A stretch of 64,000 nucleotides of DNA from Minisyncoccota bacterium (GCA_028716745.1 JAQUPE010000003.1:3779-67778); one strand, 5' to 3'; shown: positions 2,401 through 26,483, counted from the stretch's first letter. Numbers and translations: made by a program. The notes: generated from the letters alone by a model not told the origin.

Positions 2401-2401
2401 T

Positions 2402-2429
2402 TTGTCTATTTTTTAAATTTTGCTATAAT
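2402..2429 (+). promoter_or_regulatory. Candidate sigma70-like promoter TTGTCT-16nt-TATAAT upstream of the TPR gene
   Basis: TTGTCT at 2402-2407 and TATAAT at 2424-2429 with a 16-nt spacer, about 10 nt before the ATG at 2440. Confidence 0.3.
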
Positions 2430-2439
2430 AGTTATCAAT

Positions 2440-3915: not shown

Positions 3916-3994
3916 AATAATATGAGTATTATAACAAGTTTTTTGAAAACATTGTTTTACCGGCGATTTTTGATTAGAATATAGCTATTAATCA

Positions 3995-5629: not shown

Positions 5630-6736
5630 TTTATAAACGCCTTCGGTTTCCTTAACCATTTTTTCAAGAGAGAAATTTTCTCTGATATTTTTTTGCGCTT
5701 TAGCTCCAAATTCTTCGGCTAGTTTGGGATTTGTTAAAAGGCGATTGATGGCATCCGCAAGCATCCCCGGGTTTTTTTGGGGCACAATTAAGCCGTTTTC
5801 TTCGTTTTTAACGACTTCGGGCATGCCGCCTGCATTAGTGACTATAGTCGGTAATCCGGCAGCCATAGCTTCAAGAAGAATATATGGGAGGCCTTCTTTT
5901 ATGGAAGGCAGAACAAAAATATCAAAAGCTTTTAAAAACATAGCATCGTTTCCAATAGGATCAACGATAAAAGTATTTTTTAAATTTAATTTTTTAATTA
6001 AATTACTCAATTTTACTCTCTTCTGTCCATCGCCAATTATTATGAAGTTTGCGGTCGGAATTAATGAAGCCGTTTTGATGAGGGCTTCATAATTTTTTTC
6101 TTTTGTCAGTCGCCCAATAGAGCCAATAAAAGGTAAATTTATATTTATATTCTTATTTTTACGTCCAGCATCTTTTTTAATGAATAGTCTGGAATTTTCG
6201 CGTGTTTCTAAATTGAAATTATTTATGCCGTTATGAATCATAGTTAATTTTTCGGCGGGGGCGATTTTATATTTAAGCGCTAATTGATAATCGCACCCGG
6301 AAACGCAGATTATTTTATCCTGAAACAAAGCGGCAATTTTATGAAGTAAAATATAAAACCAGCGGATAGGAGCGATTATTGCATTGTCGGGATTAAAAAC
6401 CCAGCCGTGGGCGGTAAAAACCACTTTAGTTTTTCCATAAATTTTTGCGGCGATAGCGCCGAGTACGCCTGCCTTGGAGCTGTTTAGATGAACGATGTTC
6501 GGGCGTTCTTTTTTGTAAATTTTTATTAATTCAAAAATAGCTAATATGTCATTGGAGAATAAAAATCCGCTATTATTGGATAGGTGTTTTATTTTATCGT
6601 TCTCTGCTCCTATGCCTCCAAATGAAACCTTTGTTTCAAAAAGGCTTTTATCCAAATTATTGGCAAGGTCAGTAACATTTTTTTGCGCTCCGCCCCAGCC
6701 GGATTTTGTAATAATAAATAGAACTTTTAGCTTCAT
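5621..6736 (-). CDS. GT4 family glycosyltransferase (GT-B)
   Basis: C-terminal EGLPYILLEAMAAGLPTIVTNAGGMPEVV is the E-x7-E/GT4 signature. The start was moved to MKLKVLFIITKSGWGGAQ (ATG at 6734-6736 on the complementary strand). Confidence 0.75.
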   Translation of the reverse strand: MKLKVLFIITKSGWGGAQKNVTDLANNLDKSLFETKVSFGGIGAENDKIKHLSNNSGFLFSNDILAIFELIKIYKKERPNIVHLNSSKAGVLGAIAAKIYGKTKVVFTAHGWVFNPDNAIIAPIRWFYILLHKIAALFQDKIICVSGCDYQLALKYKIAPAEKLTMIHNGINNFNLETRENSRLFIKKDAGRKNKNININLPFIGSIGRLTKEKNYEALIKTASLIPTANFIIIGDGQKRVKLSNLIKKLNLKNTFIVDPIGNDAMFLKAFDIFVLPSIKEGLPYILLEAMAAGLPTIVTNAGGMPEVVKNEENGLIVPQKNPGMLADAINRLLTNPKLAEEFGAKAQKNIRENFSLEKMVKETEGVYKLL

Positions 6737-6774
6737 TTTTGTGTTATATAAATATAACTTATAATATAACGTGT

Positions 6775-7956
6775 ATGGACAATGAAAAGCCACAAATAGC
6801 GGTTTTTTCTTTAGCTTTTTATCCTTTTGAGGGAGGGGCTGAAGTAGCTTGCCGGGAGATAATAAAGCGCCTGCCAAGGCTGAATTTCGCGATTTTTACT
6901 TATAAATTTGATATGAAGTGGCCTTCTGTTGAAGCGGACGGAAATGCCGAAATTATCAGGCTGGGGCTGGGAAGCAACGGAAAGAAATACGGCAGAATTT
7001 TGGATAAAGCGCTTTATATTTTTAGGGCTTTACGCGCGGCGGAAAAAGCTCATAAAGAAAAAAAATTCAAAGTGATCTGGGCGATAATGGCTTCTTATGG
7101 CGGAATCGCTGCTTTATTTTTTAAGTTGAGGCATCCGGAAATTTCTTTGTTATTAACTGTTCAGGAAGGAGATTCGGAAAAATATCTGGTATCCGGAAGA
7201 ATGGGACTCGTAGGTTTTTTTGGAAAAAAGATTTTTCAAAAGGCGGATTTTATACAGGCGATAAGCAATTATTTGAAAGATTTTGCTATTAAGCGCGGAG
7301 CGCGCTGTCCGATAGAAGTCGTTCCGAATGGAGTGGATATTAAAAATTTCAGCAAGAAATATTCCGAATTGGAAATTAAGGAATTAAGAGACAGGCTGGG
7401 CCTTAAAGACGAATATATTATTGTAACGACTTCCCGCTTGGTTTATAAAAACGGCGTGGATGTCTTGATTGACGCAATAGCGAAATTCAGAGAAAAAACT
7501 CCGAATGTAAAATGCCTGGTTGTCGGAGACGGGCCGGAGCGGAGTAATTTAGAATCAAAAATAAAGAAATTGGGAATTGAAAGGAATATTTTATTGCTCG
7601 GACAGATAGATCAGAAAGAAATCCCTCTTTATTTGAAAATTTCCGATATTTTTGCAAGGCCATCCCGTTCTGAGGGACTGGGAAATTCTTTTTTGGAAGC
7701 GATGGCTGCCGGTATTCCGGTTATTGGAACTCCGGTTGGGGGAATTGTTGATTTTTTGGTTGATAAAGAAACAGGATTTATCATGCAGGTGGACGATTCA
7801 AAAGAATTAGCCGATAAAATTGATTTTATAATTCAAAATCCCGAGCTTTGCAAAAAAATAGCTAATAACGGGCTTAAAATGGTTAAGGACAGGTATTCTT
7901 GGGATAAAATTGCCGAATCGTTCAGCGATATATTCAATAATAAATTAATTAAATGA
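6775..7956 (+). CDS. GT4 family glycosyltransferase
   Basis: SEGLGNSFLEAMAAGIPVIGTPVGGIVDFL motif. The start was moved to MDNEKPQIAVFS to avoid overlap with the divergent gene. Confidence 0.75.
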   Translation: MDNEKPQIAVFSLAFYPFEGGAEVACREIIKRLPRLNFAIFTYKFDMKWPSVEADGNAEIIRLGLGSNGKKYGRILDKALYIFRALRAAEKAHKEKKFKVIWAIMASYGGIAALFFKLRHPEISLLLTVQEGDSEKYLVSGRMGLVGFFGKKIFQKADFIQAISNYLKDFAIKRGARCPIEVVPNGVDIKNFSKKYSELEIKELRDRLGLKDEYIIVTTSRLVYKNGVDVLIDAIAKFREKTPNVKCLVVGDGPERSNLESKIKKLGIERNILLLGQIDQKEIPLYLKISDIFARPSRSEGLGNSFLEAMAAGIPVIGTPVGGIVDFLVDKETGFIMQVDDSKELADKIDFIIQNPELCKKIANNGLKMVKDRYSWDKIAESFSDIFNNKLIK

Positions 7957-9077
7957 CAAAACTTTTAATAACTACCGGAATTTTTCCGCCCGATATCGGC
8001 GGGCCGGCGGCTCAAATTGAATATTTGGCTTCGGATTTGGTTAATGCGGGGTTTAAAGTGACGGTTTTAACTTATGGATCGCCGGAGAAAAAGGAGAGGA
8101 ATTTTAAGCTGGTTAAGGTTTCAAGAAAATTATTGCCGGGATTAAAGCAATTGATTTTCGGCATAAAAGTTTTTTATCTGGCTTATAAGTCGGAAGTTAT
8201 TTATACGACAGATTTGTATTCTCCTGGATACTGGTCAATGTTGGCGGCAAAAATTTTAAATAGGAAGTTCGTTGCCCGTTTTGCGGGGGATTCGGCGTGG
8301 GAAACAGCTGTTAATTCCGGCCAGACCAATGACGATATAGTTGTTTTTCAGGATAAAAAATACAACAGCTTTATTGAAAAAAGAAAAAAACAAAGAGCCA
8401 ATATTTTAAAATCAGCCGATGCGATTGTGGCAGTCAGTAATTTTATGAAACATTTGGCGATGAAAATCGGCGTGGAAGAAAGTAAAATAAAAGTTATTTA
8501 TAATGCCGTAGATTTTTTGCCGGACATTCCGAAATATCAGGAGCCGGCTGCTCCAACCCTGACTTTCGTCGGCCGATTAACTCCTTGGAAGGGAGTAGAA
8601 ATGCTTGTTCGGGTTATGGCGGAATTGAAATTAAAATATAAAGATATTATGCTGGAAGTTCTCGGCGAAGGATCGGAGTTTGAAAATCTTAAAAATTTAG
8701 CTGAAAATCTTGGGCTTAAGGATAACGTAATGTTTCGCGGAAGAGTGAGTAAGCAGGAGGCGTTATCTATTCTTAGCCGTTCAACTGTATTTGTTTTAAA
8801 CACTAATTATGAGGGCCTGCCTCATACGGTTTTAGAAGCTATGAGCGTAGGAGCGCCGGTTATTACTACTTTGGTAGGCGGGAATCCCGAGGTCGTTAAG
8901 GATGAGGAAAATGGCTTTCTTTTGCCCTATAATGACAAAAGAGCGTGGGTTGGCGCTATCGATAGATTGCTGGGTGACAAGGGCCTGAGAAATAAATTTT
9001 CTCAGAATGGACTCAAAACATTGGAGAAGTTTAAGTGGAATGAGTTACTGAGCAAAACCATAGAAGTTTTAAAGTAA
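7953..9077 (+). CDS. GT4 family glycosyltransferase
   Basis: YEGLPHTVLEAMSVGAPVITTLVGGNPEVV motif. ATGA start/stop overlap with the upstream gene. Confidence 0.75.
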   Translation: MTKLLITTGIFPPDIGGPAAQIEYLASDLVNAGFKVTVLTYGSPEKKERNFKLVKVSRKLLPGLKQLIFGIKVFYLAYKSEVIYTTDLYSPGYWSMLAAKILNRKFVARFAGDSAWETAVNSGQTNDDIVVFQDKKYNSFIEKRKKQRANILKSADAIVAVSNFMKHLAMKIGVEESKIKVIYNAVDFLPDIPKYQEPAAPTLTFVGRLTPWKGVEMLVRVMAELKLKYKDIMLEVLGEGSEFENLKNLAENLGLKDNVMFRGRVSKQEALSILSRSTVFVLNTNYEGLPHTVLEAMSVGAPVITTLVGGNPEVVKDEENGFLLPYNDKRAWVGAIDRLLGDKGLRNKFSQNGLKTLEKFKWNELLSKTIEVLK

Positions 9078-9081
9078 AAGA

Positions 9082-10542
9082 ATGAAAAAAATAATACTTA
9101 TTAATCCGGCTTTTAATATTGTTAAGTCAAAATACGATACCAGCTTATCGGTTGGGCTTTTGTGTCTGGCTTCTTATTTATATAAAAGGAATTTCCCGGT
9201 GAAAATCGTTGATTGCGCCAGGCAGGGGAATTGGCAGGAAACTTTGGATAAAGAATTGTCGCAGACCGGATATGTTGGCTTGTCGGTTATGACCTCACAG
9301 GTTCCTTCCGCTATTGAGATAGCAAAAAAAATAAGAAAAGCATATCCGAAAATTAAATTAATCTGGGGCGGTCCCCACGTTACATTTTTCCCAAAAGAAG
9401 TTTTGGAAAGCGATTTATCTGATTTTATAGTTTTAAATGAAGGGGAAAAAACTTTGTGGGAGCTTTTGCAGGAGCTTGAAAAAAACAGCGGAGATTTTTC
9501 AAAAATCAGGGGGCTGGGATATAAATCAAGCGGAAAGATTTTCATAAATCCTCCAAGAGAGCTTTTGCCGATGGAGGAAATTCCTTTGCCTAATTGGGAA
9601 TTGGTGCCCAAGGAAATTTTGGAAAGACTGGAAATGGTGCCGACGCATACTTCGCGCGGCTGTCCGCACAGATGCGCTTTTTGCATCAATGCCATTACAA
9701 AAAATCGTTGGAGAATGAGAAGCTCGGAACAGGTCTTAAGCGATATCTCCATAATTGAATCCAAGCCGTTTTTTACAGGAAAGAAACTCCGTTTTTGGGA
9801 CGAGAATTTTTTTGTTGATTTGAGAAGAGTTGCGGAAATTGTGGATGGAATGATTTCAAAGAAACTTATTGTTCCTTGGGAAACTACGATAAGAGCGGAT
9901 TATTTTTCTCTTCCGGATTTAACAGATGAATTTTTGGCGAAGCTTAAAAAATCAGGCTGTTATTTGCTTTCTTTCGGAGCGGAATCGGGATCTATAAAAA
10001 TTTTAAGAAAAATAGATAAAGACATTACAAGGGAGCAGATTTTGAATTCCGCTCGCCGATGCCTGAAATACGGGATAATTCCTCAATATTCATTTATGGT
10101 TGGACTGCCCGGCGAATCAAGAGAGGATATGAATCAGACAATCAGCTTAATAGATGAGTTATTGAAACTCGACGCCAGAGTGCAAATACTCGGCCCGCAG
10201 GCGTTTCGCCCCTATCCAGGCTCTCCTTTATATGAAGAATGCTTGCTATCCGGCTGGAAGGCTCCGGCTGGCTTGGAAGATTGGTCAAATGCCATACTGA
10301 ATGAAATGAGTTATTTGACCCCATACCAGTTTCCCTGGGTAAAAGATCCGGACATGGTGGATTCCTTGGAGGCCTATGCCCGTTTTGGAGCTCAGAGCTT
10401 TAAGAGCGCGCTTGGCTCGACTGTTACTTCGAATAAATTTCTAAAGTTTTTGTTTTCTTTGGTTTGCAGGCTTCGCTGGAAGTTGAGATTTTTTAAATGG
10501 CCTATAGAATATAAATTGGCGAAGAAATATGTTGCTAAATAA
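9082..10542 (+). CDS. B12-binding domain radical SAM protein (class B)
   Basis: N-terminal Rossmann-like B12-binding region is followed by SRGCPHRCAFC (CxxxCxxC radical SAM cluster motif). 486 aa. Confidence 0.75.
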   Translation: MKKIILINPAFNIVKSKYDTSLSVGLLCLASYLYKRNFPVKIVDCARQGNWQETLDKELSQTGYVGLSVMTSQVPSAIEIAKKIRKAYPKIKLIWGGPHVTFFPKEVLESDLSDFIVLNEGEKTLWELLQELEKNSGDFSKIRGLGYKSSGKIFINPPRELLPMEEIPLPNWELVPKEILERLEMVPTHTSRGCPHRCAFCINAITKNRWRMRSSEQVLSDISIIESKPFFTGKKLRFWDENFFVDLRRVAEIVDGMISKKLIVPWETTIRADYFSLPDLTDEFLAKLKKSGCYLLSFGAESGSIKILRKIDKDITREQILNSARRCLKYGIIPQYSFMVGLPGESREDMNQTISLIDELLKLDARVQILGPQAFRPYPGSPLYEECLLSGWKAPAGLEDWSNAILNEMSYLTPYQFPWVKDPDMVDSLEAYARFGAQSFKSALGSTVTSNKFLKFLFSLVCRLRWKLRFFKWPIEYKLAKKYVAK

Positions 10543-10550
10543 ATACTAAG

Positions 10551-11246
10551 ATGAAAAAAACCAACGAAGAATTAAAAAAGATTATTGATGAAAAGGCGCC
10601 CGGAAGCCCGGAAGAAAAAAACTGGGCTTTTAATGTTTTGTTCAAAGATTGGGCGAATATGCACGAATATATTTATAAAAGATTCAATGTTGATTTTGGA
10701 ATGAATATTCTGGACATCGGCAGCAATTATGGGCAAAACTTTATTCATTTTGGAAAAGACTCTCTCGGCGTCGAGATAAATCAAAAGGCGGTGGAATTTG
10801 CAAAATCGCTGGGGCTCAAAGTTGCTTCAATCAATGCTGAAGACGATTTAAAATCAATTAATCAGAAATTCAATCTTATCTGGTGCACCGATTTTTTGGT
10901 GCATGTAGCCAGCCCTTATAAGTTTTTATACGATAGCCGCAAGTTGCTGGAGGATAAGGGAAAAATTATTATTCAGATTCCTCTTATGTCAATATTCAAC
11001 AGGCATAAATCAGGCTGCCATCTTTATGCTTTTAATAAAAAAGCGCTTTTGTATTTAATGGAAATGGCCGGTTATAAAATTATTAAAACCTCCGGCTATA
11101 TAAGAAAAAAGCCGAAATGGTTTAATTTTATTTTTGAACCGCTTCTTCAGATTTATGGAGGAAATATCTGGGTATTGGCGGAGAAAAAAGAAGGCACTCC
11201 TTTTAATTTGCAAAAGGTTTTTATGCCGAAATGGTTTGAAATTTAA
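10551..11246 (+). CDS. Class I SAM-dependent methyltransferase (divergent)
   Basis: ILDIGSNYGQNF (motif I-like Gly-rich loop) and an overall Rossmann MTase layout. Low similarity. Confidence 0.45.
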   Translation: MKKTNEELKKIIDEKAPGSPEEKNWAFNVLFKDWANMHEYIYKRFNVDFGMNILDIGSNYGQNFIHFGKDSLGVEINQKAVEFAKSLGLKVASINAEDDLKSINQKFNLIWCTDFLVHVASPYKFLYDSRKLLEDKGKIIIQIPLMSIFNRHKSGCHLYAFNKKALLYLMEMAGYKIIKTSGYIRKKPKWFNFIFEPLLQIYGGNIWVLAEKKEGTPFNLQKVFMPKWFEI

Positions 11247-11258
11247 ACGTTAAATAAA

Positions 11259-12023
11259 ATGGACTGGAAAAAATTAGAACAACCCTATTATCTTAGGTCA
11301 AAAAAATATGAAGGAGGAAAATACTTATCCTTGAACAGAAAGCATAAGGGCGTTTTAGAATATTTGGATTTTGCTTTGGAGAAAATCAATAAAGACGGCG
11401 TTGATTTCTGCGACGCTGGATGCGGGAACGGAATATATCTTAAATTTTTAAAGGAAAATAGAACTGGATTGGCGAGCCTGTGCGGCTTTGATTTTTCGGA
11501 AAAAATCGTTGAATTGGCAAAGGAAAACACGGGTTTAGAGGAGATTAAGATCGGAAACCTTGAAAATGCTCCTTTTGGGAATGAAAAATTTGATCTGATA
11601 TTATGCACTCAGGTAATAGAGCATTTATTGGAAGATAAAAGGGGAATTGCGGAGTTATATAGGATGTTGAGAAAAGGCGGGTATTTGGTAATAAGCACAG
11701 ATAATACATATAATATTATCTCCGAGTTCTTAAATTTGCCGTTTAGAATTTTGTCTTTGCCTTACGCCTTGCTTAAAAAGATTTTTAGGGATAAAAAATA
11801 TTTTCCTCATAAATCTTACTCGATTAAAGAATTCAAGAATTTAATCGGTGTTGGAAATTTTGAAATAGAAAAAGTTTCGACATTCAGATTTTCTATGCCG
11901 TTCCCGTTTTATAAGATCAAGGCAATGAGAGACACAATAGATTTTTTTGAAATGATTTGCGGAAAAATTGGAATTTTCAAAAATAATGGAGATATAGTAA
12001 TCGCTTTGTGCAAAAAAATATGA
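11259..12023 (+). CDS. Class I SAM-dependent methyltransferase
   Basis: DAGCGNGIYLKFL (motif I), FDLILCTQVIEHL (motif II) and LRKGGYLVIST (motif III). Confidence 0.65.
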   Translation: MDWKKLEQPYYLRSKKYEGGKYLSLNRKHKGVLEYLDFALEKINKDGVDFCDAGCGNGIYLKFLKENRTGLASLCGFDFSEKIVELAKENTGLEEIKIGNLENAPFGNEKFDLILCTQVIEHLLEDKRGIAELYRMLRKGGYLVISTDNTYNIISEFLNLPFRILSLPYALLKKIFRDKKYFPHKSYSIKEFKNLIGVGNFEIEKVSTFRFSMPFPFYKIKAMRDTIDFFEMICGKIGIFKNNGDIVIALCKKI

Positions 12024-13450
12024 TAACTCTTATCCAAATAAATTACAGCGAGGATCACTCGGAAAAAATATTGCCGCTGGGCATTCTTTCGGTTGGAAGC
12101 GCGCTTAAAAAGAAGGGATATGATGTTCAGCTTATAAATATTAATGAAAGGCAGATAAATAGTACGGCAGAAAAAATTGCGGCAATGAAGCCCGACTTTA
12201 TAGGCATTTCAGTAATGACGGGAATTCAAACCCAGCATAGCGCCGAGTTTTCAAAGAAAATAAAACAATTGGGCAATATCCCGATAGTGTGGGGTGGAAT
12301 ACATCCGACTTTGTTGCCGGATCAGTGCATAAAAGAAGAATATATAGATTATGTAATTTATGGCGAAGGAGAAATAACCACTTTGGAATTTGCGGAGAAA
12401 TTTTATAAGGATAAGAATTTCAGCGGAATTTTGGGATTAATTTATAAAAAGGACGGCAAGATTATTACAAATTCCGAAAGGCCGCTTATTGAGAATCTGG
12501 ACGCCTGGAGGCTGGATTTCAGCTTGATTGATATGAATCAGTTTATTTTTCCTTTGAGCAAATATAAAAGGGTTATCGCTTATAAATCCAGCAGGGGATG
12601 TCCGTTTGGCTGCGCTTTTTGCTATAACTTCAAATTTAATAAAAGCAGATGGAGGGTTTGGTCTGAAGACGCGGTTATGGAAGATATAAATTTTTTGAAG
12701 GAAAAATATAAAATAGACGCGATAAAGTTTTATGACGATAATTTTTTTGTGGACAAAGAGCGTGCACTTTCATTGTTATCAAAAATAAATTTGCCGTGCC
12801 ATTTGGAAATAAGAATAGATTTTATAGATGATGAGCTGGTGGCTAAGCTGAAAAACTTTAATATTTTTGACATGCTTATCGGACTTGAATCGGGATCTGA
12901 AAGGATGCTTCAGCTGATTGATAAGCGTTTTACAGTTGAAAGATTGCTTCAGGGAGTGAGAAGCATAGCCAAATATGGATTGCATGCCACCTATTCTTTT
13001 ATAGTGGGACTGCCATCGGAAACAGAAAAAGATTTTAATGAAACAATCAGCGTAATGAATCAGGTTTATAAAATTCATCCTCAGGCGGGATTTACTGTTG
13101 GCGCTTATCTGCCGTATCCGGGATCAAAACTTTATGATTTCAGCTTGATGCAGGGGTTTGTTCCGCCGCAGAGAACTGAGGATTGGGGGAAAATAGACCG
13201 GTTTAGAAAGGATTTTAATTCTCCTTGGGTTAATGTAAGGAAAGTCTGGGTCATCAGAGAGTGCTTTAAGATTTTAAGCTGGGATCTGAAGATATTGAAA
13301 AAATGGTTTGAATTCAGAATAAGCCATAATTTTTATTCTTTTCCTATAGATATTTATGTCGTTGAATTTTTGGCCGGCATAGCGATAGAGGAGAAGTGGT
13401 TTGTGGGTAAGTTAATGCGCCGTTTATACAATAAATTAAGGAATAGATGA
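12008..13450 (+). CDS. B12-binding domain radical SAM protein (class B), paralog 2
   Basis: SRGCPFGCAFCYNF CxxxCxxC motif. Same architecture as the 9082 gene. Confidence 0.75.
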   Translation: MQKNMITLIQINYSEDHSEKILPLGILSVGSALKKKGYDVQLININERQINSTAEKIAAMKPDFIGISVMTGIQTQHSAEFSKKIKQLGNIPIVWGGIHPTLLPDQCIKEEYIDYVIYGEGEITTLEFAEKFYKDKNFSGILGLIYKKDGKIITNSERPLIENLDAWRLDFSLIDMNQFIFPLSKYKRVIAYKSSRGCPFGCAFCYNFKFNKSRWRVWSEDAVMEDINFLKEKYKIDAIKFYDDNFFVDKERALSLLSKINLPCHLEIRIDFIDDELVAKLKNFNIFDMLIGLESGSERMLQLIDKRFTVERLLQGVRSIAKYGLHATYSFIVGLPSETEKDFNETISVMNQVYKIHPQAGFTVGAYLPYPGSKLYDFSLMQGFVPPQRTEDWGKIDRFRKDFNSPWVNVRKVWVIRECFKILSWDLKILKKWFEFRISHNFYSFPIDIYVVEFLAGIAIEEKWFVGKLMRRLYNKLRNR

Positions 13451-14550
13451 AAGTTTTAATTATAAATTTAGACAAGGGTATTTTTAAGCAAGAATCGGCC
13501 GTGTTGGAAAAGCTCCGAAAACACAGCCGTTTTTTTGATAAATTTTTTACGATTACCTGGACTTTAAAAAATGACAAAGTCATTATTGAAAATAATTTAG
13601 CGGCTTACCCGACTAATTCTATCGCGAAGATTTTTTACATTTTTGATACATTGAGGATTTTTAAGAAATTTATAGCGAAGGAAAAGATAGATTTAGTTTC
13701 GGCTCAAGATCCTTTTGAAACAGGCCTGGCTGCCTGGATGGTAAGCAGGCTGTTTAAGATTCCTTTGCATTTGCAGGTACATACGGATGTTTTTAGCCCA
13801 TATTTTTGGAAAGATTCGTTTTCAAATAAAATCAGAGTTTTGCTGGCTAAATTTTTACTGCCTAAGGCCGATGGAATAAGAGTAGTTTCCGAAAGAATAA
13901 AAAAATCTTTCGCCGGACTAAATCTTAAAACCGAGCCGGTTGTTTTATCGATATTTGTAGATGCTTCTAAAATCCAAAGAGCGGAAATAAAAAGCGATTT
14001 GCGGAAAAAATATCCGCAATACGATTTTATTATTTTAACAGCCTCGCGTTTTACCAAGGAAAAGAATATCGGCTTATCTATTGGGGCCATGAAGGAAATC
14101 GTAAAAAGGCATCCGAAAACAGGATTGGTAATAGCCGGTTCCGGTCCAGAAGAGAATAAGCTGAAGGTAATGGTTGAAAAATCGGGATTAAATAATAATG
14201 TTGTTTTTGAGCCATGGACTAAAGATTTGGCTTCTTATTATAAAAGCGCCGATTTGTTTATTTTGACTTCTAATTATGAAGGGTATGGTTTGGTGGTAGA
14301 GGAGGCGATGATTGCCGGCTTGCCGGTGGTAATGACGGATGTCGGCTTGGCCGGAGAAATCGTGAAAAATGAAATTAACGGGATTATTGTTCCGGTTGGA
14401 GATGCCGATAGATTAATTAACGCAGTTAATTTATTATTAGAGAACGGAGAAAAAAGGAAGAATTTGGCCGAAAAAGCCTTAAAAATTTCGGCAGATCTGC
14501 CCGAAGAAGAACAGATAATAAGACAGTCGCTAGTCGTAAAAAATTTATAA
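13447..14550 (+). CDS. GT4 family glycosyltransferase
   Basis: YEGYGLVVEEAMIAGLPVVMTDVGLAGEIV motif. Confidence 0.7.
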   Translation: MKVLIINLDKGIFKQESAVLEKLRKHSRFFDKFFTITWTLKNDKVIIENNLAAYPTNSIAKIFYIFDTLRIFKKFIAKEKIDLVSAQDPFETGLAAWMVSRLFKIPLHLQVHTDVFSPYFWKDSFSNKIRVLLAKFLLPKADGIRVVSERIKKSFAGLNLKTEPVVLSIFVDASKIQRAEIKSDLRKKYPQYDFIILTASRFTKEKNIGLSIGAMKEIVKRHPKTGLVIAGSGPEENKLKVMVEKSGLNNNVVFEPWTKDLASYYKSADLFILTSNYEGYGLVVEEAMIAGLPVVMTDVGLAGEIVKNEINGIIVPVGDADRLINAVNLLLENGEKRKNLAEKALKISADLPEEEQIIRQSLVVKNL

Positions 14551-14555
14551 CATTT

Positions 14556-15197
14556 ATGGAAAAGGGAATAGAATCGGTTTATAAGCATCATCATCAAAAT
14601 AGGCCTCCGGAGTTCGCCGTCTTTGGGGATGCGCGCGGAAATTTTTTCAGCAGCCAAATAGGAAAAGGAAAAAAAGTCTTGGATTTGGGATGTCGAGATG
14701 GTACTTTGGCGAAATATTTTTTGGAAGGCAATAGGGTTTGGGGAATTGATATAGATAATGAAGCGCTTGGCAGGGCGGCGGAAAAAGGAATAACAACTCG
14801 CCAGGTGGACTTAAATGGTTCCTGGGATATTTTAAATGGAGAAAAATTTGATGCCGTGGTAGCGGCCGAAGTGCTGGAGCATCTTTATTTTCCGGAAATT
14901 GTTTTGGATAAAATAAACGATGTTCTTAATTCCGGCGGAGTGCTGGTTGGCTCTATTCCGAATGCATTCAGTTTGAAAAATAGGATAAGATTATTGCTTG
15001 GAAAAAAGAGATATACCACATTAGGCGATCCGACCCACATAAATCATTTCAGTTTCAATGATTTGAACAATGCCTTGAAAAAAAAGTTTACAGAGGTCAA
15101 AATAAAGCCATTGGTCAGGAAGCCCTTTGGCCCTATAGCCAGGCTTATGCCGGGCCTAATAGCTTACGATTTTATCTTTTCAGCTAAAAAAATATGA
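14556..15197 (+). CDS. Class I SAM-dependent methyltransferase
   Basis: VLDLGCRDGTLAKYF (motif I), DAVVAAEVLEHLYFPE (motif II) and GGVLVGSIPN. Confidence 0.65.
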   Translation: MEKGIESVYKHHHQNRPPEFAVFGDARGNFFSSQIGKGKKVLDLGCRDGTLAKYFLEGNRVWGIDIDNEALGRAAEKGITTRQVDLNGSWDILNGEKFDAVVAAEVLEHLYFPEIVLDKINDVLNSGGVLVGSIPNAFSLKNRIRLLLGKKRYTTLGDPTHINHFSFNDLNNALKKKFTEVKIKPLVRKPFGPIARLMPGLIAYDFIFSAKKI

Positions 15198-15892
15198 AAA
15201 AATTATCAATAATAATGCCGGCCTATAATGAGAAAGGCACAATAGAAGAAATTATCAGCCGGATAAAAAAAGTTAATTTGGAAGGAATAGAAAAGGAAAT
15301 AATAGTCGTCGATGACGGCTCCAAGGATGGTACTAGGGAAATTTTGAGAAATATCCCGGATATCAAATATTTTTTCCATGAAAATAATCTTGGCAAGGGA
15401 GGGGCGACTAAGACAGGCCTTCAAGAAGCCACTGGCGACATTTTAATTATTCAAGATGCGGATTTGGAGTATGATCCCGAGGATTACAAAAAAATGCTCA
15501 AGCCGATTTTAAACGGACAGGCAGATGTTGTTTATGGTTCAAGATTTCTGACGGGGGAGCCCAAAAGAGTTTTGTTTTTCTGGCATCTCTTGGGCAATCT
15601 TTTTTTGACATTTCTTTCAAATTTATTTACCAGTCTGACTTTAACCGATATGGAGACTTGCTATAAGATGTTTAAAAAAGAAGTGGCGGATTCTTTTAAG
15701 GATAAATTAGAATCAAAGAGATTCGGCATAGAGCCGGAATTGACCGCCAGAATAGCAAAAGGAAACTGGAGAATATATGAAGTAGGAATTGCTTATTACG
15801 GAAGATCTTACAATGAGGGCAAAAAAATAAATTGGAAAGACGGCGTTGCCGCTATTTGGCACATAATAAGATTTAATTTGTTTACTAAATGA
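15194..15892 (+). CDS. GT2 family glycosyltransferase (Dpm1/GtrB-like)
   Basis: LSIIMPAYNEKGTIEE...VVDDGSKDGT...IQDADLEYDPED. GT2 DXD architecture, 232 aa. Confidence 0.7.
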   Translation: MKKLSIIMPAYNEKGTIEEIISRIKKVNLEGIEKEIIVVDDGSKDGTREILRNIPDIKYFFHENNLGKGGATKTGLQEATGDILIIQDADLEYDPEDYKKMLKPILNGQADVVYGSRFLTGEPKRVLFFWHLLGNLFLTFLSNLFTSLTLTDMETCYKMFKKEVADSFKDKLESKRFGIEPELTARIAKGNWRIYEVGIAYYGRSYNEGKKINWKDGVAAIWHIIRFNLFTK

Positions 15893-17304
15893 AAAGATTA
15901 AAAGTATTACTGATGAGGCCCGATTCTAGGTCGGATGAATTAATACCCCCGTTCGGTTTGGGGTATTTAATTACGGCTGCGAGAAAAAAACATGATGTTG
16001 AAATTTTGGACGGCATTAAAGAAAAATTAACGCCGGAAAAATTTAGAGAGATTTTAAAAGATAAAAAGTATGATGTGATAGGAATTCAAATTTTTACTTT
16101 TCACGTTATTTCGGTAAAAGAATATGTAAAAGTAATAAAAGAAGTGCTGCCTGAGGCAAAAATAGTATTTGGCGGACCGCATCCGTCTTGCGCTTATGCC
16201 AATATTTTCCAGCTTTTTCCTAATATAGATTGGGCCTTTAGAGGAGAGGCAGAAGTTGGCTTGGCAAAGCTATTGGATTTAATAGCGGAAAATAAGGAAG
16301 CCGATAGAAATAAGCTGATGGAAGTGCCTGGCCTCATATGGAGAATAGACGGCCGGACAGTGGCAAATCAGCAGTTGTTTGTTGAAGATTTAGATGAACT
16401 GGGGATGCCGAGCTGGGATATTTTAAAGCCGAATACTTATCCTTTGGCTCCTCATGGAGGGTTTTTCAAAAACTATCCGATTGCTCCGATTATCATTACT
16501 CGCGGATGCCCGTTTTCCTGCACTTATTGTGCCGGTTATTTGGTTAGCGGAAAGAAAATAAGATTTAGAAGCGTTGATAAAGTTATGGAAGAAATAAAGT
16601 GGCTTTACAACGAATACGGCATAAGAGAAATCCATATTGAAGACGATAATTTTACTTTCAATCCTGATTTCGTAAGAGAGTTTTGCAGAAAGATGAAGGA
16701 GTCCGGACTTGGAATAACCTGGACTTGTCCGAATGGAGTGCGTTTGGATACTTTGACGGAAGATCTTCTTTTGACGATGAAAGATGCGGGGCTTTACAGT
16801 ATTTCCGTAGGAATAGAATCCGGTTCGGAAAGAATATTGAAAGAAATGAAAAAAAGTTTGACCAAGGATGTAATAAGAGAAAAAGTCAGTCTGATTAAAA
16901 AGTGCGGTTTGGAAATTTCCGGATTTTTTATCATCGGTTATCCGGGAGAAACAATAAAAGATATAACAGAGACAATTGATTTTTCAATTGAGCTCGGACT
17001 TAAAAGGGCAGGATTTTCTCTTTTCAAGCCGTTTCCCGGAACGGAAATTACGAGAAAGCTAGTGGAAAGCGGGGAGCTCAAAGAAATGTCCGACGAGGAT
17101 TGGAGCAGATTTGTTTTGGCCGATGCCGTTTATGCTCCGCAGGGATTTACCAGAGAGCAGATGAAAGGATTGAGAAAAAAAGCTTTGAGAAGATTTTATT
17201 TCAGGCCGAAAATAGTTATAAAGTTTTTCAGCGAAGTGAGAAACATACAGCATTTAAAGATTGTTTTAAAAAGGATTTACAGCTGGCTATTTAAGGCTAA
17301 ATAA
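15889..17304 (+). CDS. B12-binding domain radical SAM protein (class B), paralog 3
   Basis: TRGCPFSCTYCAG motif with an N-terminal B12-binding-like domain. Confidence 0.75.
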   Translation: MKRLKVLLMRPDSRSDELIPPFGLGYLITAARKKHDVEILDGIKEKLTPEKFREILKDKKYDVIGIQIFTFHVISVKEYVKVIKEVLPEAKIVFGGPHPSCAYANIFQLFPNIDWAFRGEAEVGLAKLLDLIAENKEADRNKLMEVPGLIWRIDGRTVANQQLFVEDLDELGMPSWDILKPNTYPLAPHGGFFKNYPIAPIIITRGCPFSCTYCAGYLVSGKKIRFRSVDKVMEEIKWLYNEYGIREIHIEDDNFTFNPDFVREFCRKMKESGLGITWTCPNGVRLDTLTEDLLLTMKDAGLYSISVGIESGSERILKEMKKSLTKDVIREKVSLIKKCGLEISGFFIIGYPGETIKDITETIDFSIELGLKRAGFSLFKPFPGTEITRKLVESGELKEMSDEDWSRFVLADAVYAPQGFTREQMKGLRKKALRRFYFRPKIVIKFFSEVRNIQHLKIVLKRIYSWLFKAK

Positions 17305-17309
17305 TTTTT

Positions 17310-19019
17310 ATGACTACTGTTTTGAATTTTATGAATCGGCACAAGATTTTGCTCTTGATTTTAGCCGCCGCATTTTTAATAAGAATTGTCGGCATTGGAT
17401 ATGGCTTGCCCCACGAATTTATCGGTGATGAATTTGTGCAGGTGGCTGTGTCTTTAAAAATGATTGATGCCAAAGCGCTTACGCCGAATTTCCCGACTAT
17501 TTTTTATCATCAGCCCCTTAGCGCTTACATTTCGGCCTTGGGAATCGGCGCATATTTATTTTTCCAATTGATTTTTGGAAAGTTTGGAAGCATTGCGGCG
17601 ATGAGGGATTATTATATTGTTCATCCGACGGATCTCCTTATTGTTACTCGTTTTATGGCGGTGCTGTGCGGGGCTTTGACTGTATGGCTCTTATATTTAA
17701 TAGGCAGGGATTTGTTTAATAGGCGTGCCGGTTTAATAGCGGCATTTTTGGGGGTCTTTGATTTTTTGTTCATATATAACCAGCATACGGGAAGAGTTTG
17801 GAGCTATATGTCGGTTTTTATCGCTTTGGCTTTATGGGCGAGCGTTAAGCTGTTTAAAGAGGATAAATTCAAAAATTATCTATTGTCGGCCGGGGCTTCG
17901 TTGCTGGCGGCCGCTAATTTGCTGCCCGGGCTTTTGACGTTTATTCCTTCGGTGGTAGCGAGGTTTAAATGGAATAACAAAAAAATATGGATTGCTTTTG
18001 GAGCGATTATTTTGGGGCTGATTTTAATCTTTCTTATGAGTCCGCGCGGATTTGGGGCGGTGTTTTTCCGTTTTGATATTTTCAGCGGGAGTAAGATTTT
18101 AGAAACGGTGGCAAAAACGACGGTTGAATATCAGGTGGCGCCGACGCCGGTTTTTAACAGGATATTTGATACATTCATCACCTTATTCAATTATTTACCG
18201 GTTTATTTTATTTTGTTTTTGGCAGGTATGGCATTTTTATGGAGAGAAGACAGAAAGAAGTTTTTCTTTTTCGCTTCTTTTCCTTTTTTCTATTATCTTT
18301 TTATAGGCCCGTTTTATACTTTTGGCTGGGTAGCGCGGTGCATGGTTCCTTTCTCCGTTTATTTTGTTTTGGGCTCGGCTTATTTGCTGGATTTATTGGC
18401 TAAAAAATATTTTAATGATTCTAAAAAAGTTTTGATTATCGGCGTGCTGGCGGTTTCCTTACCGTCAATTGTTATGTCGGTTTTGTTTGACGTGAAAATT
18501 TCTAGAGACGACACAAGAACTCAATCCGTTAATTGGATTTATAAAAATCTTCCGGAAGATTCCAGAATTATAGATTATTCGGGAACCGATGAAGTTATAA
18601 ACCAGGACAGGGGAATTTTGGAATTAATGAAGAAAACCGGGGTTAAGGAACTGAGCACTAAGCAGAAGTTTTTGTTGTCGGCTGGCGACGAGGCATATCC
18701 GCGTCCGGAATATTTTGTTTTGGATTTGAGGGAATTTAATCCAGGCCTGATGGAAAAGGATTTTTTTAAAAATAATAAATTTATTTATTACAGAAAAACC
18801 GATTGGGGAAGCAAGACAACGGAAGATTTCGGATACTTGCTGGAAGGAGCATTTGCCAAAAAAGAGCTGATTGCCAAATTTTCTCCATTTGCCGATGGGG
18901 TTAGCTACGGACCGGAAGATCTCGGAAACGTTCATGATATGCAATACCCGATTCTTCCTCTTATTAAAGCTCAGAGATTTGGACCCGTGGTGGAAGTATA
19001 CAAAATCAGTTTTAAGTAG
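17310..19019 (+). CDS. GT-C fold polytopic membrane glycosyltransferase (PMT_2/ArnT-like), second copy
   Basis: Multi-TM protein with the loop-1 GDE motif (EFIGDEFVQV) and a large C-terminal soluble domain. Confidence 0.55.
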   Translation: MTTVLNFMNRHKILLLILAAAFLIRIVGIGYGLPHEFIGDEFVQVAVSLKMIDAKALTPNFPTIFYHQPLSAYISALGIGAYLFFQLIFGKFGSIAAMRDYYIVHPTDLLIVTRFMAVLCGALTVWLLYLIGRDLFNRRAGLIAAFLGVFDFLFIYNQHTGRVWSYMSVFIALALWASVKLFKEDKFKNYLLSAGASLLAAANLLPGLLTFIPSVVARFKWNNKKIWIAFGAIILGLILIFLMSPRGFGAVFFRFDIFSGSKILETVAKTTVEYQVAPTPVFNRIFDTFITLFNYLPVYFILFLAGMAFLWREDRKKFFFFASFPFFYYLFIGPFYTFGWVARCMVPFSVYFVLGSAYLLDLLAKKYFNDSKKVLIIGVLAVSLPSIVMSVLFDVKISRDDTRTQSVNWIYKNLPEDSRIIDYSGTDEVINQDRGILELMKKTGVKELSTKQKFLLSAGDEAYPRPEYFVLDLREFNPGLMEKDFFKNNKFIYYRKTDWGSKTTEDFGYLLEGAFAKKELIAKFSPFADGVSYGPEDLGNVHDMQYPILPLIKAQRFGPVVEVYKISFK

Positions 19020-19034
19020 TTATATTATTAATAT

Positions 19035-19991
19035 ATGAAAATCTCGGTAGTAGTCCCCATATTTAATGAAGAATTGGCCATAGCGGAAAACGTCAGGGCT
19101 ATAGTTAAAGCTCTTAACGATTTGGGCCGCGATTGGGAACTCGTTTTGGTAAATGATGGAAGCAGGGATAAAACATTGGAAATAATTACCGGTTTAGCCA
19201 AAGAAAATTCCAAAATCAAAGTCGTTTCTTATACAACGAACCGCGGACGAGGACATGCTTTGAAGACCGGATTTGCGGCAGCAACAGGCGATTATGTCAT
19301 AGCGACAGAATCGGATTTGAATTGGGGAACGGAAATTTTCGGAAATTTTGTAAGAGAACTCGATAAGGGAGATGCGGATATAATTGTAGCCTCTCCGCAT
19401 ATGAAGGGAGGGAGAATGGAAAACGTTCCATTTTCGAGGTGGCTGTTAAGTTATTTGGGAAATAAGATTTTCTCATTGGCATTTCCGGGGAAAATGACAA
19501 TGTGCACCGGAATGACGCGCGCTTATAAAAAAGAAGTTTTGGATTCTTTAGATTTGGAATCGGACGACAAAGAATTGCATATAGAAATTCTTTATAAGGC
19601 CTTGGATCTGGGATTTACGGTAAAAGAAATACCGGCAATATTAAGATGGAAAAAGCCGGAGAAGGGAGTCATTGTCCGCAAATCTCATTTTAAATACAAA
19701 GCAATTCTCAAGCACCTTCTTTTGAGTTTCGGAGTAAAGCCGTTTTTGCTTTTCGGCGGATTGGGTTTCGGCCTTGTTGGAATTGGTTCAATTATAGGAA
19801 TTTATCTTTTGGTTTTGTGGCTGGGAGGCGAAGCTATCGGGGCTCGTCCGATTTTATTTACTGCGGTTTTGCTGATAGTTGTCGGATTTCAAGTTTTAGT
19901 TTTCGGATTTTTGGCCAATCAGAACAGGGAGATAAAGAGACAACTGGCAAGAGTGCAAAAAGCTATTAAGGAATCAAGCGAAAAGAGCTAA
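19035..19991 (+). CDS. GT2 polyprenol-phosphate glycosyltransferase with C-terminal TM helices (GtrB/ArnC-like)
   Basis: ISVVVPIFNEE...LVNDGSRDKT... plus two C-terminal TM helices (LFGGLGFGLVGIGSIIGIYLLVLWL...LLIVVGFQVLVFGFL), typical of GtrB/ArnC. Confidence 0.7.
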   Translation: MKISVVVPIFNEELAIAENVRAIVKALNDLGRDWELVLVNDGSRDKTLEIITGLAKENSKIKVVSYTTNRGRGHALKTGFAAATGDYVIATESDLNWGTEIFGNFVRELDKGDADIIVASPHMKGGRMENVPFSRWLLSYLGNKIFSLAFPGKMTMCTGMTRAYKKEVLDSLDLESDDKELHIEILYKALDLGFTVKEIPAILRWKKPEKGVIVRKSHFKYKAILKHLLLSFGVKPFLLFGGLGFGLVGIGSIIGIYLLVLWLGGEAIGARPILFTAVLLIVVGFQVLVFGFLANQNREIKRQLARVQKAIKESSEKS

Positions 19992-19995
19992 GCCT

Positions 19996-20958
19996 GTGAA
20001 AAAGACAATTTTATATTTTTTAAGGATCGTTTTAACGGCAGCCGTTGTTTGGTATTTTTTTCAAAAAATTAATTTGGAAAAGTCTTTTGAGGCGGTAAAA
20101 CAAGCCGACTTTTTGATTTTTCTTTCGGCATTGGCTGTTTCTTTAATCGCCTGGATTTTTAATTCGCTGAGATGGCGACAGATTTTTTTGGCGGCAAATA
20201 TCAATATGCCGGCGAAGAAACTTTTTTTATATAATCTCGTCGGGGTTTTTTACGGCGTTGTTTTGCCTGGCGGGAAGCTGACGGGCGATGCGGTTTGCGC
20301 TCATCGGCTTACGGAAGATAATTCCGAAAACGGATACGATAAAAGATATTTTCTTTCAATATTAATGGATAGAGCAATAGGGATGCTCACGATGATATTT
20401 TTCGTGTCGGTTTATTTTATATTCAAAAAGCCATTTTATAATCTTGGCTGGCAATCGGATGCTTTCGGATATTTTTTATTGGCGGCTGATTTGCTGGGTT
20501 TCATTCTTATATTTACACCGGTTTTTGGTTTGGTTGTTTCCAAAATAATTAAATTATTTGCCAGCCGATGGAGCCTGCTTAATAATATTGAATCTATAAC
20601 TCAGGTTTATGGTCAGAATAAAAGGAGGCTTTATCCGGCATTATTATTTTCAATAGCGGGAGTTTCTTGCTTAGCGTTGTCGGTTTATTTGCTTAGCTTG
20701 AGCGTCGGGCTGGGGGCCAGTTTTGGAGCTGTAGGTTTTTCTTATTTATTGGCAACTATTTTAATAGTTGTTCCGATTACTATCGGAGGAATCGGCTTGA
20801 GGGAGGGAGGCATAACTTATTTTTTGATTCATTTAGGGGCGCCTATAGACGGCGCGGCTGCCTTGTCTATTCTTATGTTTGCGCAGTTTGCGATTGTGGC
20901 TTTAATCGGAGGAGCGATAGAGTTGTATTTTGTAGTTTTTAAAAAGGCTTTAAAATAA
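19996..20958 (+). CDS. Flippase-like polytopic membrane protein (lysyl-PG synthase TM-domain / UPF0104-like). GTG start.
   Basis: About 8 TM helices and no soluble domain. It sits immediately after the GtrB-like GT2 and before a GT-C protein, the classic position of a lipid-linked sugar translocase. Confidence 0.45.
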   Translation: MKKTILYFLRIVLTAAVVWYFFQKINLEKSFEAVKQADFLIFLSALAVSLIAWIFNSLRWRQIFLAANINMPAKKLFLYNLVGVFYGVVLPGGKLTGDAVCAHRLTEDNSENGYDKRYFLSILMDRAIGMLTMIFFVSVYFIFKKPFYNLGWQSDAFGYFLLAADLLGFILIFTPVFGLVVSKIIKLFASRWSLLNNIESITQVYGQNKRRLYPALLFSIAGVSCLALSVYLLSLSVGLGASFGAVGFSYLLATILIVVPITIGGIGLREGGITYFLIHLGAPIDGAAALSILMFAQFAIVALIGGAIELYFVVFKKALK

Positions 20959-20962
20959 GAAG

Positions 20963-26369: not shown

Positions 26370-26483
26370 ACGAATTGCTTTGTTGTTTTTATATAGACAG
26401 GCTTGAATGTTCGAGTTCAAGATGTTATTTTTCTAGCTTGTTCCTTAATAAAATAAGGAAGGCATTATAATAAAGGAGAAACT

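Follow-up and report, generated by a model that had tools for sequence, protein, structure and literature searches.

Gene order at 9082–17304

We analysed a stretch of 64,000 nucleotides, referred to as the window, from a metagenome-assembled genome (MAG) of Candidatus Paceibacterota/Pacebacteria, a member of the candidate phyla radiation (CPR) whose taxon is assigned to the phylum Minisyncoccota. Positions 9082–17304 carry a run of genes for three radical S-adenosylmethionine (SAM) proteins with a B12-binding domain (rSAM1, rSAM2 and rSAM3), which alternate with class I SAM methyltransferases and with glycosyltransferases (GTs) of families GT4 and GT2. The list of open reading frames (ORFs) and the Pfam annotation gave, on the plus strand, the order rSAM1 – methyltransferase – methyltransferase – rSAM2 – GT4 – methyltransferase – GT2_232 – rSAM3 (Table 1), and reproduced what an earlier reading of the sequence alone (the sequence-only reading) had proposed, including a fourth paralog, rSAM4, at 42162. 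The same reading had described a co-directional, tight operon lying within a glycan locus and without space for precursors of peptides made by the ribosome and modified after translation (RiPPs). The junctions are ATGA overlaps in four cases and gaps of 4–12 nt in the others, which leaves no room for small precursor genes or extra ORFs and led us to reject a RiPP reading. The ORF of rSAM2 opens at GTG 12008, and its true start is most likely ATG 12020, which overlaps the stop of MT254 (ATGA). The database entries of rSAM1, rSAM3 and rSAM4 (MDD5547586.1, MDD5547593.1 and MDD5547618.1), matched by exact sequence and all on one 72.5-kb contig, are each labelled merely 'radical SAM protein'.

Table 1. 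Positions in the window of the radical SAM genes, their partners and the adjoining lipid-linked donor genes.
Feature	Positions	Strand	Size and domain evidence	Remark
GT4_374	7953–9077	+	374 aa; Pfam Glycos_transf_1, E = 6.8e-44	conserved upstream partner of rSAM1
rSAM1	9082–10542	+	486 aa; Pfam B12-binding 59.5 bits, Radical_SAM 69.8 bits
MT231, class I SAM methyltransferase	10551–11246	+	231 aa; Pfam Methyltransf_23/11	accessory insert
MT254, class I SAM methyltransferase	11259–12023	+	254 aa; Pfam Methyltransf_11, E = 3e-20	accessory insert
rSAM2	12020–13450	+	476 aa from ATG 12020; B12-binding 75.7 bits, Radical_SAM 79.9 bits
GT4_367	13447–14550	+	367 aa; Pfam Glycos_transf_1, E = 1.6e-42	conserved downstream partner of rSAM1
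MT213, class I SAM methyltransferase	14556–15197	+	213 aa; Pfam	upstream of GT2_232
GT2_232, small soluble GT2	15194–15892	+	232 aa; Pfam E = 4e-38	polyprenyl/dolichyl-phosphate glycosyltransferase type
rSAM3	15889–17304	+	471 aa; B12-binding 64.7 bits, Radical_SAM 102.9 bits
PMT2_569, PMT_2-like GT-C glycosyltransferase	17310–19019	+	569 aa, about 8 hydrophobic/transmembrane (TM) segments; Pfam PMT_2 E = 4.6e-9
Second lipid-linked donor set	19035–22273	+	GtrB/ArnC-like GT2 (318 aa, C-terminal TM segments), LPG_synthase_TM, PMT_2 GT-C (436 aa); Pfam, TM counts
rSAM4	42162–43649	+	495 aa; Pfam B12-binding 42.0 bits, Radical_SAM 67.6 bits

The run is a module of three parts: a conserved GT4–rSAM1–GT4 segment, a rare MT231–MT254–rSAM2 insert and an MT213–GT2_232–rSAM3 unit. 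The eight genes had been taken as a single unit; their co-occurrence across related loci (numbered L001 and so on) revealed instead two conserved sub-modules plus the insert. A single conserved block was rejected, since the Parcubacteria locus L001 (Athens0714_26) lacks rSAM1, the first two methyltransferases and rSAM2, and the Pacebacteria locus L087 lacks the insert, MT213, GT2_232 and rSAM3.

Conservation of the GT2_232–rSAM3 pair and of the other modules

The rSAM3 family comprises proteins of about 470 aa that are 50–81% identical across MAGs of the Parcubacteria group (Tagabacteria, Zambryskibacteria, Portnoybacteria and others), and relatives of about 51% identity carry the label 'archaeon'. 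Close relatives of rSAM3 were present in 22 metagenome loci, 14 of which carry at least 700 bp of upstream sequence; in 14 of these 14 an orthologue of GT2_232 (263–435 bits) lies directly upstream of rSAM3 on the same strand, a raw count taken without a background rate for GT adjacency. GT2_232 occupies the same position in L001, and GT2_232-like and rSAM3-like genes are neighbours, in either order, in the archaeon L005 and in the Omnitrophota MAG L006. The most conserved genes of the locus are GT2_232 (68–82% identity) and rSAM3 (66–78%), with respect to which the GT-C and GT4 genes are far more variable. The arrangement of a GT2_232-type gene with rSAM3 is widespread among CPR bacteria and also occurs in some archaea.

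The nearest solved relative of GT2_232 is DPMS (5MLZ, E = 1.2e-19), followed by ArnC and GtrB, and its top NCBIfam matches, all partial and below cutoff, were AglJ, PpgS and a dolichyl-phosphate hexose transferase. By similarity, GT2_232 is thus a predicted polyprenyl-phosphate GT2 of the DPMS/GtrB/ArnC type. A polytopic membrane protein with 7–11 hydrophobic segments is encoded no more than 3 kb downstream of rSAM3 in 11 of the 14 loci whose sequence extends far enough. In the window this protein is PMT2_569, whose L001 orthologue is 60% identical; its score of 37.1 bits against Pfam PMT_2 (gathering score 26.1) places it with the GT-C enzymes of three-component glycosylation systems, and a sequence search of the PDB gave no match for it. 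PMT2_569 is the presumed user of the lipid-linked donor.

An orthologue of MT213, 68% identical, occupies the same position in L001, and in the Magasanikbacteria locus L085 (LBYK01000001.1) a fused methyltransferase–GT2 protein precedes an rSAM3-like gene, in parallel with the MT213–GT2_232–rSAM3 order of the window. Iron–sulfur (Fe-S) assembly genes, IscS–NifU, directly follow the rSAM3 orthologue in L001 (11682–14281), L091 (2588–4452) and L093 (2826–4443), with 70% and 68% identity between loci; L001 adds an FNR-like reductase and a ferredoxin after them, and L091 contains a partial FNR-like match. Considering that rSAM1 and rSAM3 are better conserved than the surrounding glycosyltransferases and that rSAM3 stands beside Fe-S assembly genes, a core envelope function, rather than a strain-variable decoration, is suggested. 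In the archaeal locus L113 (Ga0209541_10001452, 3757–13392) a radical SAM protein of 438 aa and a B12-binding one of 463 aa, 51% identical to rSAM3, are encoded together with two flanking GT2 genes. The rSAM3 relative and a 230-aa GT2 stand there beside genes for Alg13/Alg14-like proteins, a Glycos_transf_4 protein (AglH-type) and STT3/AglB, in what is a dolichyl-phosphate N-glycosylation locus. Separately, the rSAM3 orthologue of L109 (803–2214) is present as two ORFs (803–1684 and 1687–2214), and is possibly a pseudogene or an assembly error.

The rSAM1 family is CPR-wide: in Patescibacteria it counts more than 120 clusters (at 90% identity) with at least 56% identity. Its orthologue (57–77% identity) lies between the orthologues of GT4_374 and GT4_367 in L085, L086 (Buchananbacteria-like) and L087, and in all three its start overlaps the upstream GT4 gene; none of MT231, MT254 and rSAM2 was found in these loci. 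L001 is syntenic with window positions 3211–22273, yet there GT4_374 is directly followed by GT4_367. L085 also contains a cluster of UbiA prenyltransferase, DUF6580, B12-binding radical SAM and amine oxidase genes and, within its glycan region too, a run of methyltransferase, SPASM radical SAM, polysaccharide deacetylase and GT2 genes (3558–7785 and 14611–16982).

When 1.84 billion representatives were scanned in full with HMMER, only two close relatives of rSAM2 emerged, with 61% and 50% identity, and phmmer found no orthologue of MT231 or rSAM2, nor a close one of MT254, in 114 related loci. From these searches MT231–MT254–rSAM2 is a rare accessory insert. Among the best 150 rSAM2 homologues (35–41% identity), four proteins are fusions of a B12-binding radical SAM protein with a class I methyltransferase, and further fusions join it to GT9, to GT4 or to both a methyltransferase and a GT. 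These fusions indicate that the rSAM2 branch is independently tied to glycosyltransfer and to class I methyltransferases, and the gene order of the window (rSAM1 next to a methyltransferase, a methyltransferase next to rSAM2, and methyltransferase–GT2–rSAM3) repeats the pairing known from the fusion proteins. In one homologue of rSAM2 (P0445, 818 aa) a LAGLIDADG intein splits the B12 domain from the radical SAM core.

Four paralogs in one locus had been considered unusual, a view that did not hold for these lineages, since loci of CPR bacteria, Omnitrophota and archaea repeatedly contain between two and seven such genes. L003 has three radical SAM genes inside 6 kb, two of them with a B12 domain; L085 has four, three of them with a B12 domain, and L090 and L099 have three each. 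Furthermore, genome contigs were scanned with the rSAM3 family alignment, and the matches listed (no more than 48% identity) come from other phyla, with no Patescibacteria among them; in a rough survey of these matches, 27 of the 80 distant loci had at least two radical SAM genes.

No homologue of rSAM4 exceeded 53% identity, and the nearest ones belong to Patescibacteria, Omnitrophota and Acidobacteria. They adjoin CTP_transf_3, NeuB or MptE-like genes in L088, L089 and L090 (Parcubacteria, Acidobacteria and Omnitrophota), and rSAM4 of the window likewise stands beside a NeuB module. GC content is 0.45–0.475 over the GFO oxidoreductases and rSAM4 (40001–44000) and 0.448 over GNAT241/DegT395 (26001–28000), as compared to 0.36–0.39 in most of the glycan locus; together with the spread of the distant rSAM4 homologues over several phyla, the higher GC content suggests segments acquired by horizontal transfer. 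Right after rSAM4 (43656–46979, plus strand), a 1107-aa asparagine-synthase-type amidotransferase is encoded, whose residues 937–1104 match the BFO_1060 family glycosyltransferase model with 60.7 bits, below cutoff; in L088 a weak match to this same region lies beside the rSAM4 orthologue.

Enzyme class, cofactor and proposed reaction

All four radical SAM proteins pass the Pfam gathering scores of PF02310 (B12-binding, 32.1) and PF04055 (Radical_SAM, 29.5; scores in Table 1), and the three cysteines of the CX3CX2C motif (C194/C198/C201 in rSAM1) are invariant in their alignment. With the fold matches given below, the class B architecture first assigned to them is well founded. Since they are only 24–32% identical in pairwise comparison, they are old paralogs and not recent duplicates.

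None of the four attains the cutoff of any curated NCBIfam family. The top model was HpnJ for rSAM1, rSAM3 and rSAM4 and BchE for rSAM2. HpnJ (TIGR03471, cutoff 577.6) gave 142, 125.5, 188 and 105 bits for rSAM1 to rSAM4, respectively; BchE (TIGR02026, cutoff 481) gave 106, 151, 187.5 and 84 bits; and AprD4 (NF033070, cutoff 500) gave 32, 69, 119 and 46 bits, matching the radical SAM core only (e.g. residues 143–399 of rSAM3). Methylase models came next, with PhpK at 126 bits for rSAM1 and the Sden_1168 P-methyltransferase at 185 bits for rSAM3; PhpK, Sden_1168, MgmA (TIGR04014, 66–131 bits, cutoff 360), HpnR, KedN5 (36–94 bits, cutoff 700) and TsrM are all below cutoff for the four proteins. 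Partial matches were also obtained with a B12-binding radical SAM model for lipid biosynthesis (TIGR04072) and with the RiPP methylase models ApyD and TIGR03975. We rejected an identity with HpnJ, BchE or AprD4, because the scores are far under the curated cutoffs and the gene context of HpnJ and BchE is missing as well: the Pfam annotation of the whole window contains no squalene-hopene cyclase or other hpn gene, and no bacteriochlorophyll genes were found in the window.

In the comparison with solved structures the outcome differed between the paralogs. When the rSAM3 profile was run against the PDB, AprD4 ranked first (E = 1.9e-35, radical SAM core only) and MgmA/QCMT second (E = 5e-31, both domains); AprD4 is also the top PDB sequence match of rSAM2. 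The AlphaFold2 model of rSAM3 (pLDDT 83) was closest to AprD4 (TM 0.74–0.77), followed by MgmA, TsrM, OxsB, CysS and TokK, and that of rSAM1 (pLDDT 76) to MgmA, OxsB and TsrM, with AprD4 eleventh. Both models contain a five-strand Rossmann domain and match the folds of MgmA, TsrM, OxsB, TokK and CysS. In the rSAM3 and rSAM1 families, the invariant residues are concentrated in the loops that follow beta-1, beta-3, beta-4 and beta-5 of this N-terminal domain, at the cofactor-binding edge. The N-terminal similarity reaches cobalamin enzymes or their models (MgmA/TIGR04014, HpnR, Sden_1168), which the similarity to AprD4 does not. In addition, a match to PF01923 (E = 6e-41) identifies a PduO-type ATP:cob(I)alamin adenosyltransferase about 2.5 kb beyond the glycan locus (58995–59528, plus strand), indicating that this small-genome organism handles corrinoids. 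A working cofactor site is indirectly favoured by the invariant Rossmann loops of the models, the N-terminal similarity and the PduO-type gene.

The sequence-only reading had pointed to heavily C-/O-methylated or otherwise radical-modified sugars or lipid-linked intermediates, and had named clustering with non-methylating families as a finding that would speak against it. Methylation may not be presumed: HpnJ and BchE, which are non-methylating, stand narrowly above the P-methyltransferases, all far below cutoff, and the top fold match of rSAM3 is AprD4; the clustering is half seen in these top matches, without being decisive, and no sequence motif separates methylases from non-methylases. In a 2026 review BchE and HpnJ are classed as non-methylating or of unknown reaction, and cobalamin binding is denied to AprD4, which is a sugar 1,2-diol dehydratase, and to ArsL despite their Rossmann-like domain (PMC12931638). 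One or more of the enzymes, rSAM3 especially, may at the same pathway position act as a dehydratase/deoxygenase, oxidase, epimerase or rearrangement enzyme of AprD4-, HpnJ- or BchE-like kind, possibly without cobalamin, and the class I methyltransferases would then supply all methyl groups, e.g. by C-methylation next to a radical-generated keto group. We regard this as possible, at clearly less than an even chance. It agrees with the presence of a class I methyltransferase adjacent to, or one gene away from, each radical SAM gene at 9082–17304 and with the radical SAM–methyltransferase fusions, and in L003 and L004 the gene directly upstream of the rSAM3 orthologue encodes a short-chain dehydrogenase/reductase, which recalls AprD3. 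However, the scores are far too low (119 against 500 bits for AprD4, 188 against 577.6 for HpnJ) and nearly equalled by the P-methyltransferase models. The likeness to AprD4 is confined to the radical SAM core, whereas the conserved N-terminal domain aligns with genuine cobalamin enzymes, and the aligned segment of AprD4 is CPYPCRFYC (CX3CX3C-type), as compared to the canonical CX3CX2C of rSAM3. Moreover, the top fold matches of rSAM1 are cobalamin enzymes, and no reductase partner is constantly found beside rSAM3 in the metagenome loci. A C1–C5 ring contraction of the HpnJ/Cds type is unlikely for rSAM3, because the anomeric centre required by the GT-C would be lost and later transfer blocked. 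On balance, cobalamin-dependent C-methylation comes close to an even chance as the reaction of rSAM3; AprD4-like dehydration, deoxygenation or oxidation is a good deal less probable, some other reaction somewhat less probable again, and epimerisation improbable.

In the view that we put forward, the radical SAM proteins are dedicated glycan-tailoring enzymes tied to specific glycosyltransferase steps in a Paceibacterota locus for envelope glycan or glycoprotein, a proposal for and against which the chances seem to us about evenly balanced. The tailoring of sugars or lipid-linked intermediates, already suspected from the gene content, is supported by the conserved GT adjacency and by the fusions with GTs and methyltransferases. 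GT2_232 would transfer a sugar from a nucleotide sugar onto polyprenyl phosphate at the cytoplasmic membrane face, and rSAM3 would modify an unactivated carbon of the lipid-linked sugar by hydrogen abstraction with a 5'-deoxyadenosyl radical, to which MT213 would add, in some lineages, a conventional O- or N-methyl group. The modified donor would then be flipped, and PMT2_569 would transfer the donor sugar to a surface protein or polymer. As for the other paralogs, rSAM1 may come in after one GT4 step and before the next, with the lipid-linked oligosaccharide under assembly as its substrate; rSAM2 and the two methyltransferases beside it may provide a strain-specific decoration, and rSAM4 may modify a CMP-activated sugar of nonulosonic-acid type. 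More tentatively, and at clearly less than an even chance, GT2_232–rSAM3–GT-C could represent a variant of extracytoplasmic glycosylation that has four steps and has so far escaped notice, being widespread in Parcubacteria/Paceibacterota and found in some archaea as well. In it, a cobalamin-dependent radical SAM enzyme would rewrite an unactivated carbon of the polyprenyl-phosphate sugar before a GT-C of PMT_2 or STT3 type uses it.

The radical SAM enzymes might otherwise tailor soluble NDP- or CMP-sugars before any GT acts, as in classical deoxysugar pathways, and the adjacency to GTs would then reflect operon organisation only. Gene adjacency fits this explanation equally well; rSAM4 goes with CMP-sugar synthetases and NeuB, and TM segments are absent from the radical SAM proteins. 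Nevertheless, we give it clearly less than an even chance, since the co-conservation of GT2_232 and rSAM3 is much tighter than that of any sugar-nucleotide gene of the locus, no gene of an NDP-sugar pathway is constantly found beside rSAM3, and the fusions with GT4 and GT9 suggest an action on the acceptor or product of a GT and not on a free donor. The C-terminal helical tail of rSAM3, which is conserved, basic and aromatic, could bind the membrane interface.

That the substrates are not sugars at all, being instead the polyprenyl carrier, scavenged membrane lipids or a glycosylated surface protein or peptide, is very improbable in our judgement. The partial matches to TIGR04072 (lipid), ApyD and TIGR03975 (RiPP methylases), the UbiA–DUF6580–B12-binding radical SAM–amine oxidase cluster of L085 and the big PG_binding surface proteins that flank the locus in relatives point in this direction. 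However, precursor peptides have no room, the fusion partners are GTs and methyltransferases and not peptide- or lipid-handling domains, the tightest partner is a GT2, and the lipid and RiPP models score no higher than those of other class B families.

Several observations weigh against the glycosyltransferase-coupled pathway that we favour. As no curated cutoff is attained, the functions are predicted from gene context and remote homology, and a polyprenyl-phosphate sugar and a nucleotide sugar before GT2_232 are indistinguishable as substrates by gene adjacency. Besides the raw nature of the adjacency count, a GT-C is not universal, none being found within the first 1.8–3.5 kb after rSAM3 in L091, L093 and L098; phmmer searches with the window proteins are insensitive to divergent GT-C proteins. 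MT213 stands beside the pair only in the window and in L001, and no flippase of known type (GtrA, MATE, ArnEF) lies next to rSAM3. As to the cofactor, the top fold match of rSAM3 is the cobalamin-independent AprD4, the window contains no cobalamin transporter, and an Rfam scan of the window returned five tRNAs only and no cobalamin riboswitch.

Surrounding locus and comparison with known systems

According to the Pfam annotation, the window from 3 to 56 kb is one glycan locus. It holds at least nine GT4 genes, three small polyprenyl-phosphate-type GT2s and three PMT_2-type GT-C proteins, together with a TPR protein, an LPG_synthase_TM protein, Wzx-like flippases, a Wzy_C–TPR protein (a fusion at 50460–52673), a Bac_transf priming enzyme and the AsnB-like amidotransferase fused to a GT domain. 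A nonulosonic-acid module comprises two DegT aminotransferases, a dehydratase, GNATs, a formyltransferase, NeuB and two CMP-transferases. A reading as a secondary-metabolite cluster was rejected, since genes for Wzx, Wzy_C, Bac_transf, GT-C and NeuB surround the module. Sets of a small GT2 and a GT-C occur three times, as GT2_234/PMT2_544 (with a TPR protein), GT2_232/rSAM3/PMT2_569 and GT2_318/LPG_synthase_TM/PMT2_436; the last, the second donor set of Table 1, is syntenic in L001. Flippase candidates in the window are the LPG_synthase_TM protein (19996–20958) and the Wzx-like proteins, and no GtrA or MATE domain was found by Pfam.

We also observed that a PMT_2 GT-C and a separate neighbouring gene for a TPR protein (2398–3210 and 3995–5629, plus strand), kept across the CPR loci L001, L086 and L087, look like a split eukaryotic TMTC O-mannosyltransferase (PMT-like plus TPR). 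A short ORF of 278–291 aa resembling UDP-glucose/GDP-mannose dehydrogenase (49604–50440, plus strand; 5385–6242 in L095; 1875–2750 in L099) is missing its C-terminal domain and a portion of the N-terminal one; since it is found again in related CPR loci, it probably represents a true family of short proteins rather than a pseudogene. Two proteins with no confident domain (32012–32932 and 46957–48333, plus strand) gave weak matches to PF07388 (polysialyltransferase, E = 2e-4) and PF04464 (CDP-glycerol glycerophosphotransferase, E = 3e-3), and are candidate nonulosonic-acid or polyol-phosphate transferases. Past the glycan locus there are a DsbA-like protein, a thioredoxin-reductase-like protein, the PduO-type adenosyltransferase and five tRNA genes on both strands (60400–62439), an ordinary chromosomal context.

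Much of bacterial diversity belongs to the CPR/Patescibacteria, which live attached to host cells; to our knowledge, their envelope biochemistry is almost wholly uncharacterised. If the four-step variant is correct, undescribed sugars, e.g. with C-methyl branches, would be present in the envelopes of these bacteria, which are ultra-small and scavenge cofactors, and vitamin B12 taken from outside would be required to build the envelope, a possible dependency linking CPR symbionts to their communities. The reaction, once solved, would give a function to hundreds or more of the 'radical SAM protein' entries in databases, and would show whether class B radical SAM chemistry works on lipid-linked sugar donors, for which we did not find a published precedent. 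The GT2–rSAM pair is a compact system of two or three genes, directly testable in a heterologous host.

In agreement with the sequence-only reading, which regarded the architecture as uncharacterised, our full-text literature search retrieved no paper describing it. The same search gave no description of a polyprenyl-phosphate GT2 and GT-C/STT3 machinery with a class-B-type radical SAM gene set firmly between them, and no case of a B12-domain radical SAM protein as auxiliary enzyme in three-component glycosylation.

Among known systems, MgmA/QCMT, the MCR glutamine C-methyltransferase (PDB 9CCB), is the closest cobalamin-bound structure to rSAM1 (fold E = 7e-19) and the second for rSAM3. Its sequence match covers both the B12 and the radical SAM domain; it differs in having a protein substrate and in being only about 20–22% identical. 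AprD4/AprD3, responsible for the C3'-deoxygenation of apramycin, shares with our proposal a sugar substrate (paromamine) and is, through AprD4, the top sequence and fold match of rSAM3, but it differs in the core-only match, the CX3CX3C-type motif, the lack of cobalamin and the AprD3-like partner, which is not constant here.

Antibiotic class B sugar methylases co-occur with class I N-/O-methyltransferases, and the substrate of MoeK5 is a lipid-linked saccharide. GenK, GenD1/GntE, Fms7 and MoeK5 are classed as Csp3-methyltransferases that methylate unactivated sugar carbons (PMC12931638). They have the B12-domain and radical SAM architecture in common with the window proteins, but belong to secondary-metabolite clusters of Actinobacteria, as compared to a primary cell-surface glycan locus in the CPR. 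With the gentamicin- and moenomycin-type methylases the likeness is in architecture only, the sole related curated model being KedN5, with the low scores given above.

HpnJ, which takes part with HpnI and HpnK in the conversion of bacteriohopanetetrol-glucosamine into the cyclitol ether, and the calditol synthase Cds are radical SAM enzymes whose substrate is a lipid-linked sugar, joined to the lipid beforehand by a GT (PMC13459092). The HpnJ model aligns over nearly the whole of rSAM3. However, scores of 105–188 bits do not make the window proteins HpnJ orthologues, hopanoid and glycerol dialkyl glycerol tetraether genes are absent here, and ring contraction would give a non-transferable carbasugar, at odds with a downstream GT-C.

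The three-component systems (GtrB/GtrA/GtrV, ArnC/ArnD/ArnEF/ArnT and the pentofuranose systems) likewise begin with a small GT2 of the DPMS/ArnC/GtrB type, to be followed by a GT-C. ArnD and DprE1/E2 are auxiliary enzymes that modify the donor. Auxiliary epimerases further diversify the sugar donors of polyprenyl-phosphate three-component systems, as described for pentofuranose (Kelly et al., 2024; PMC11127046). The GT2_232–rSAM3 pair differs from these systems in that no recognised flippase is adjacent and GT2_232 is without the C-terminal TM helices of GtrB/ArnC, and above all in that the auxiliary enzyme is here a B12-domain radical SAM protein.

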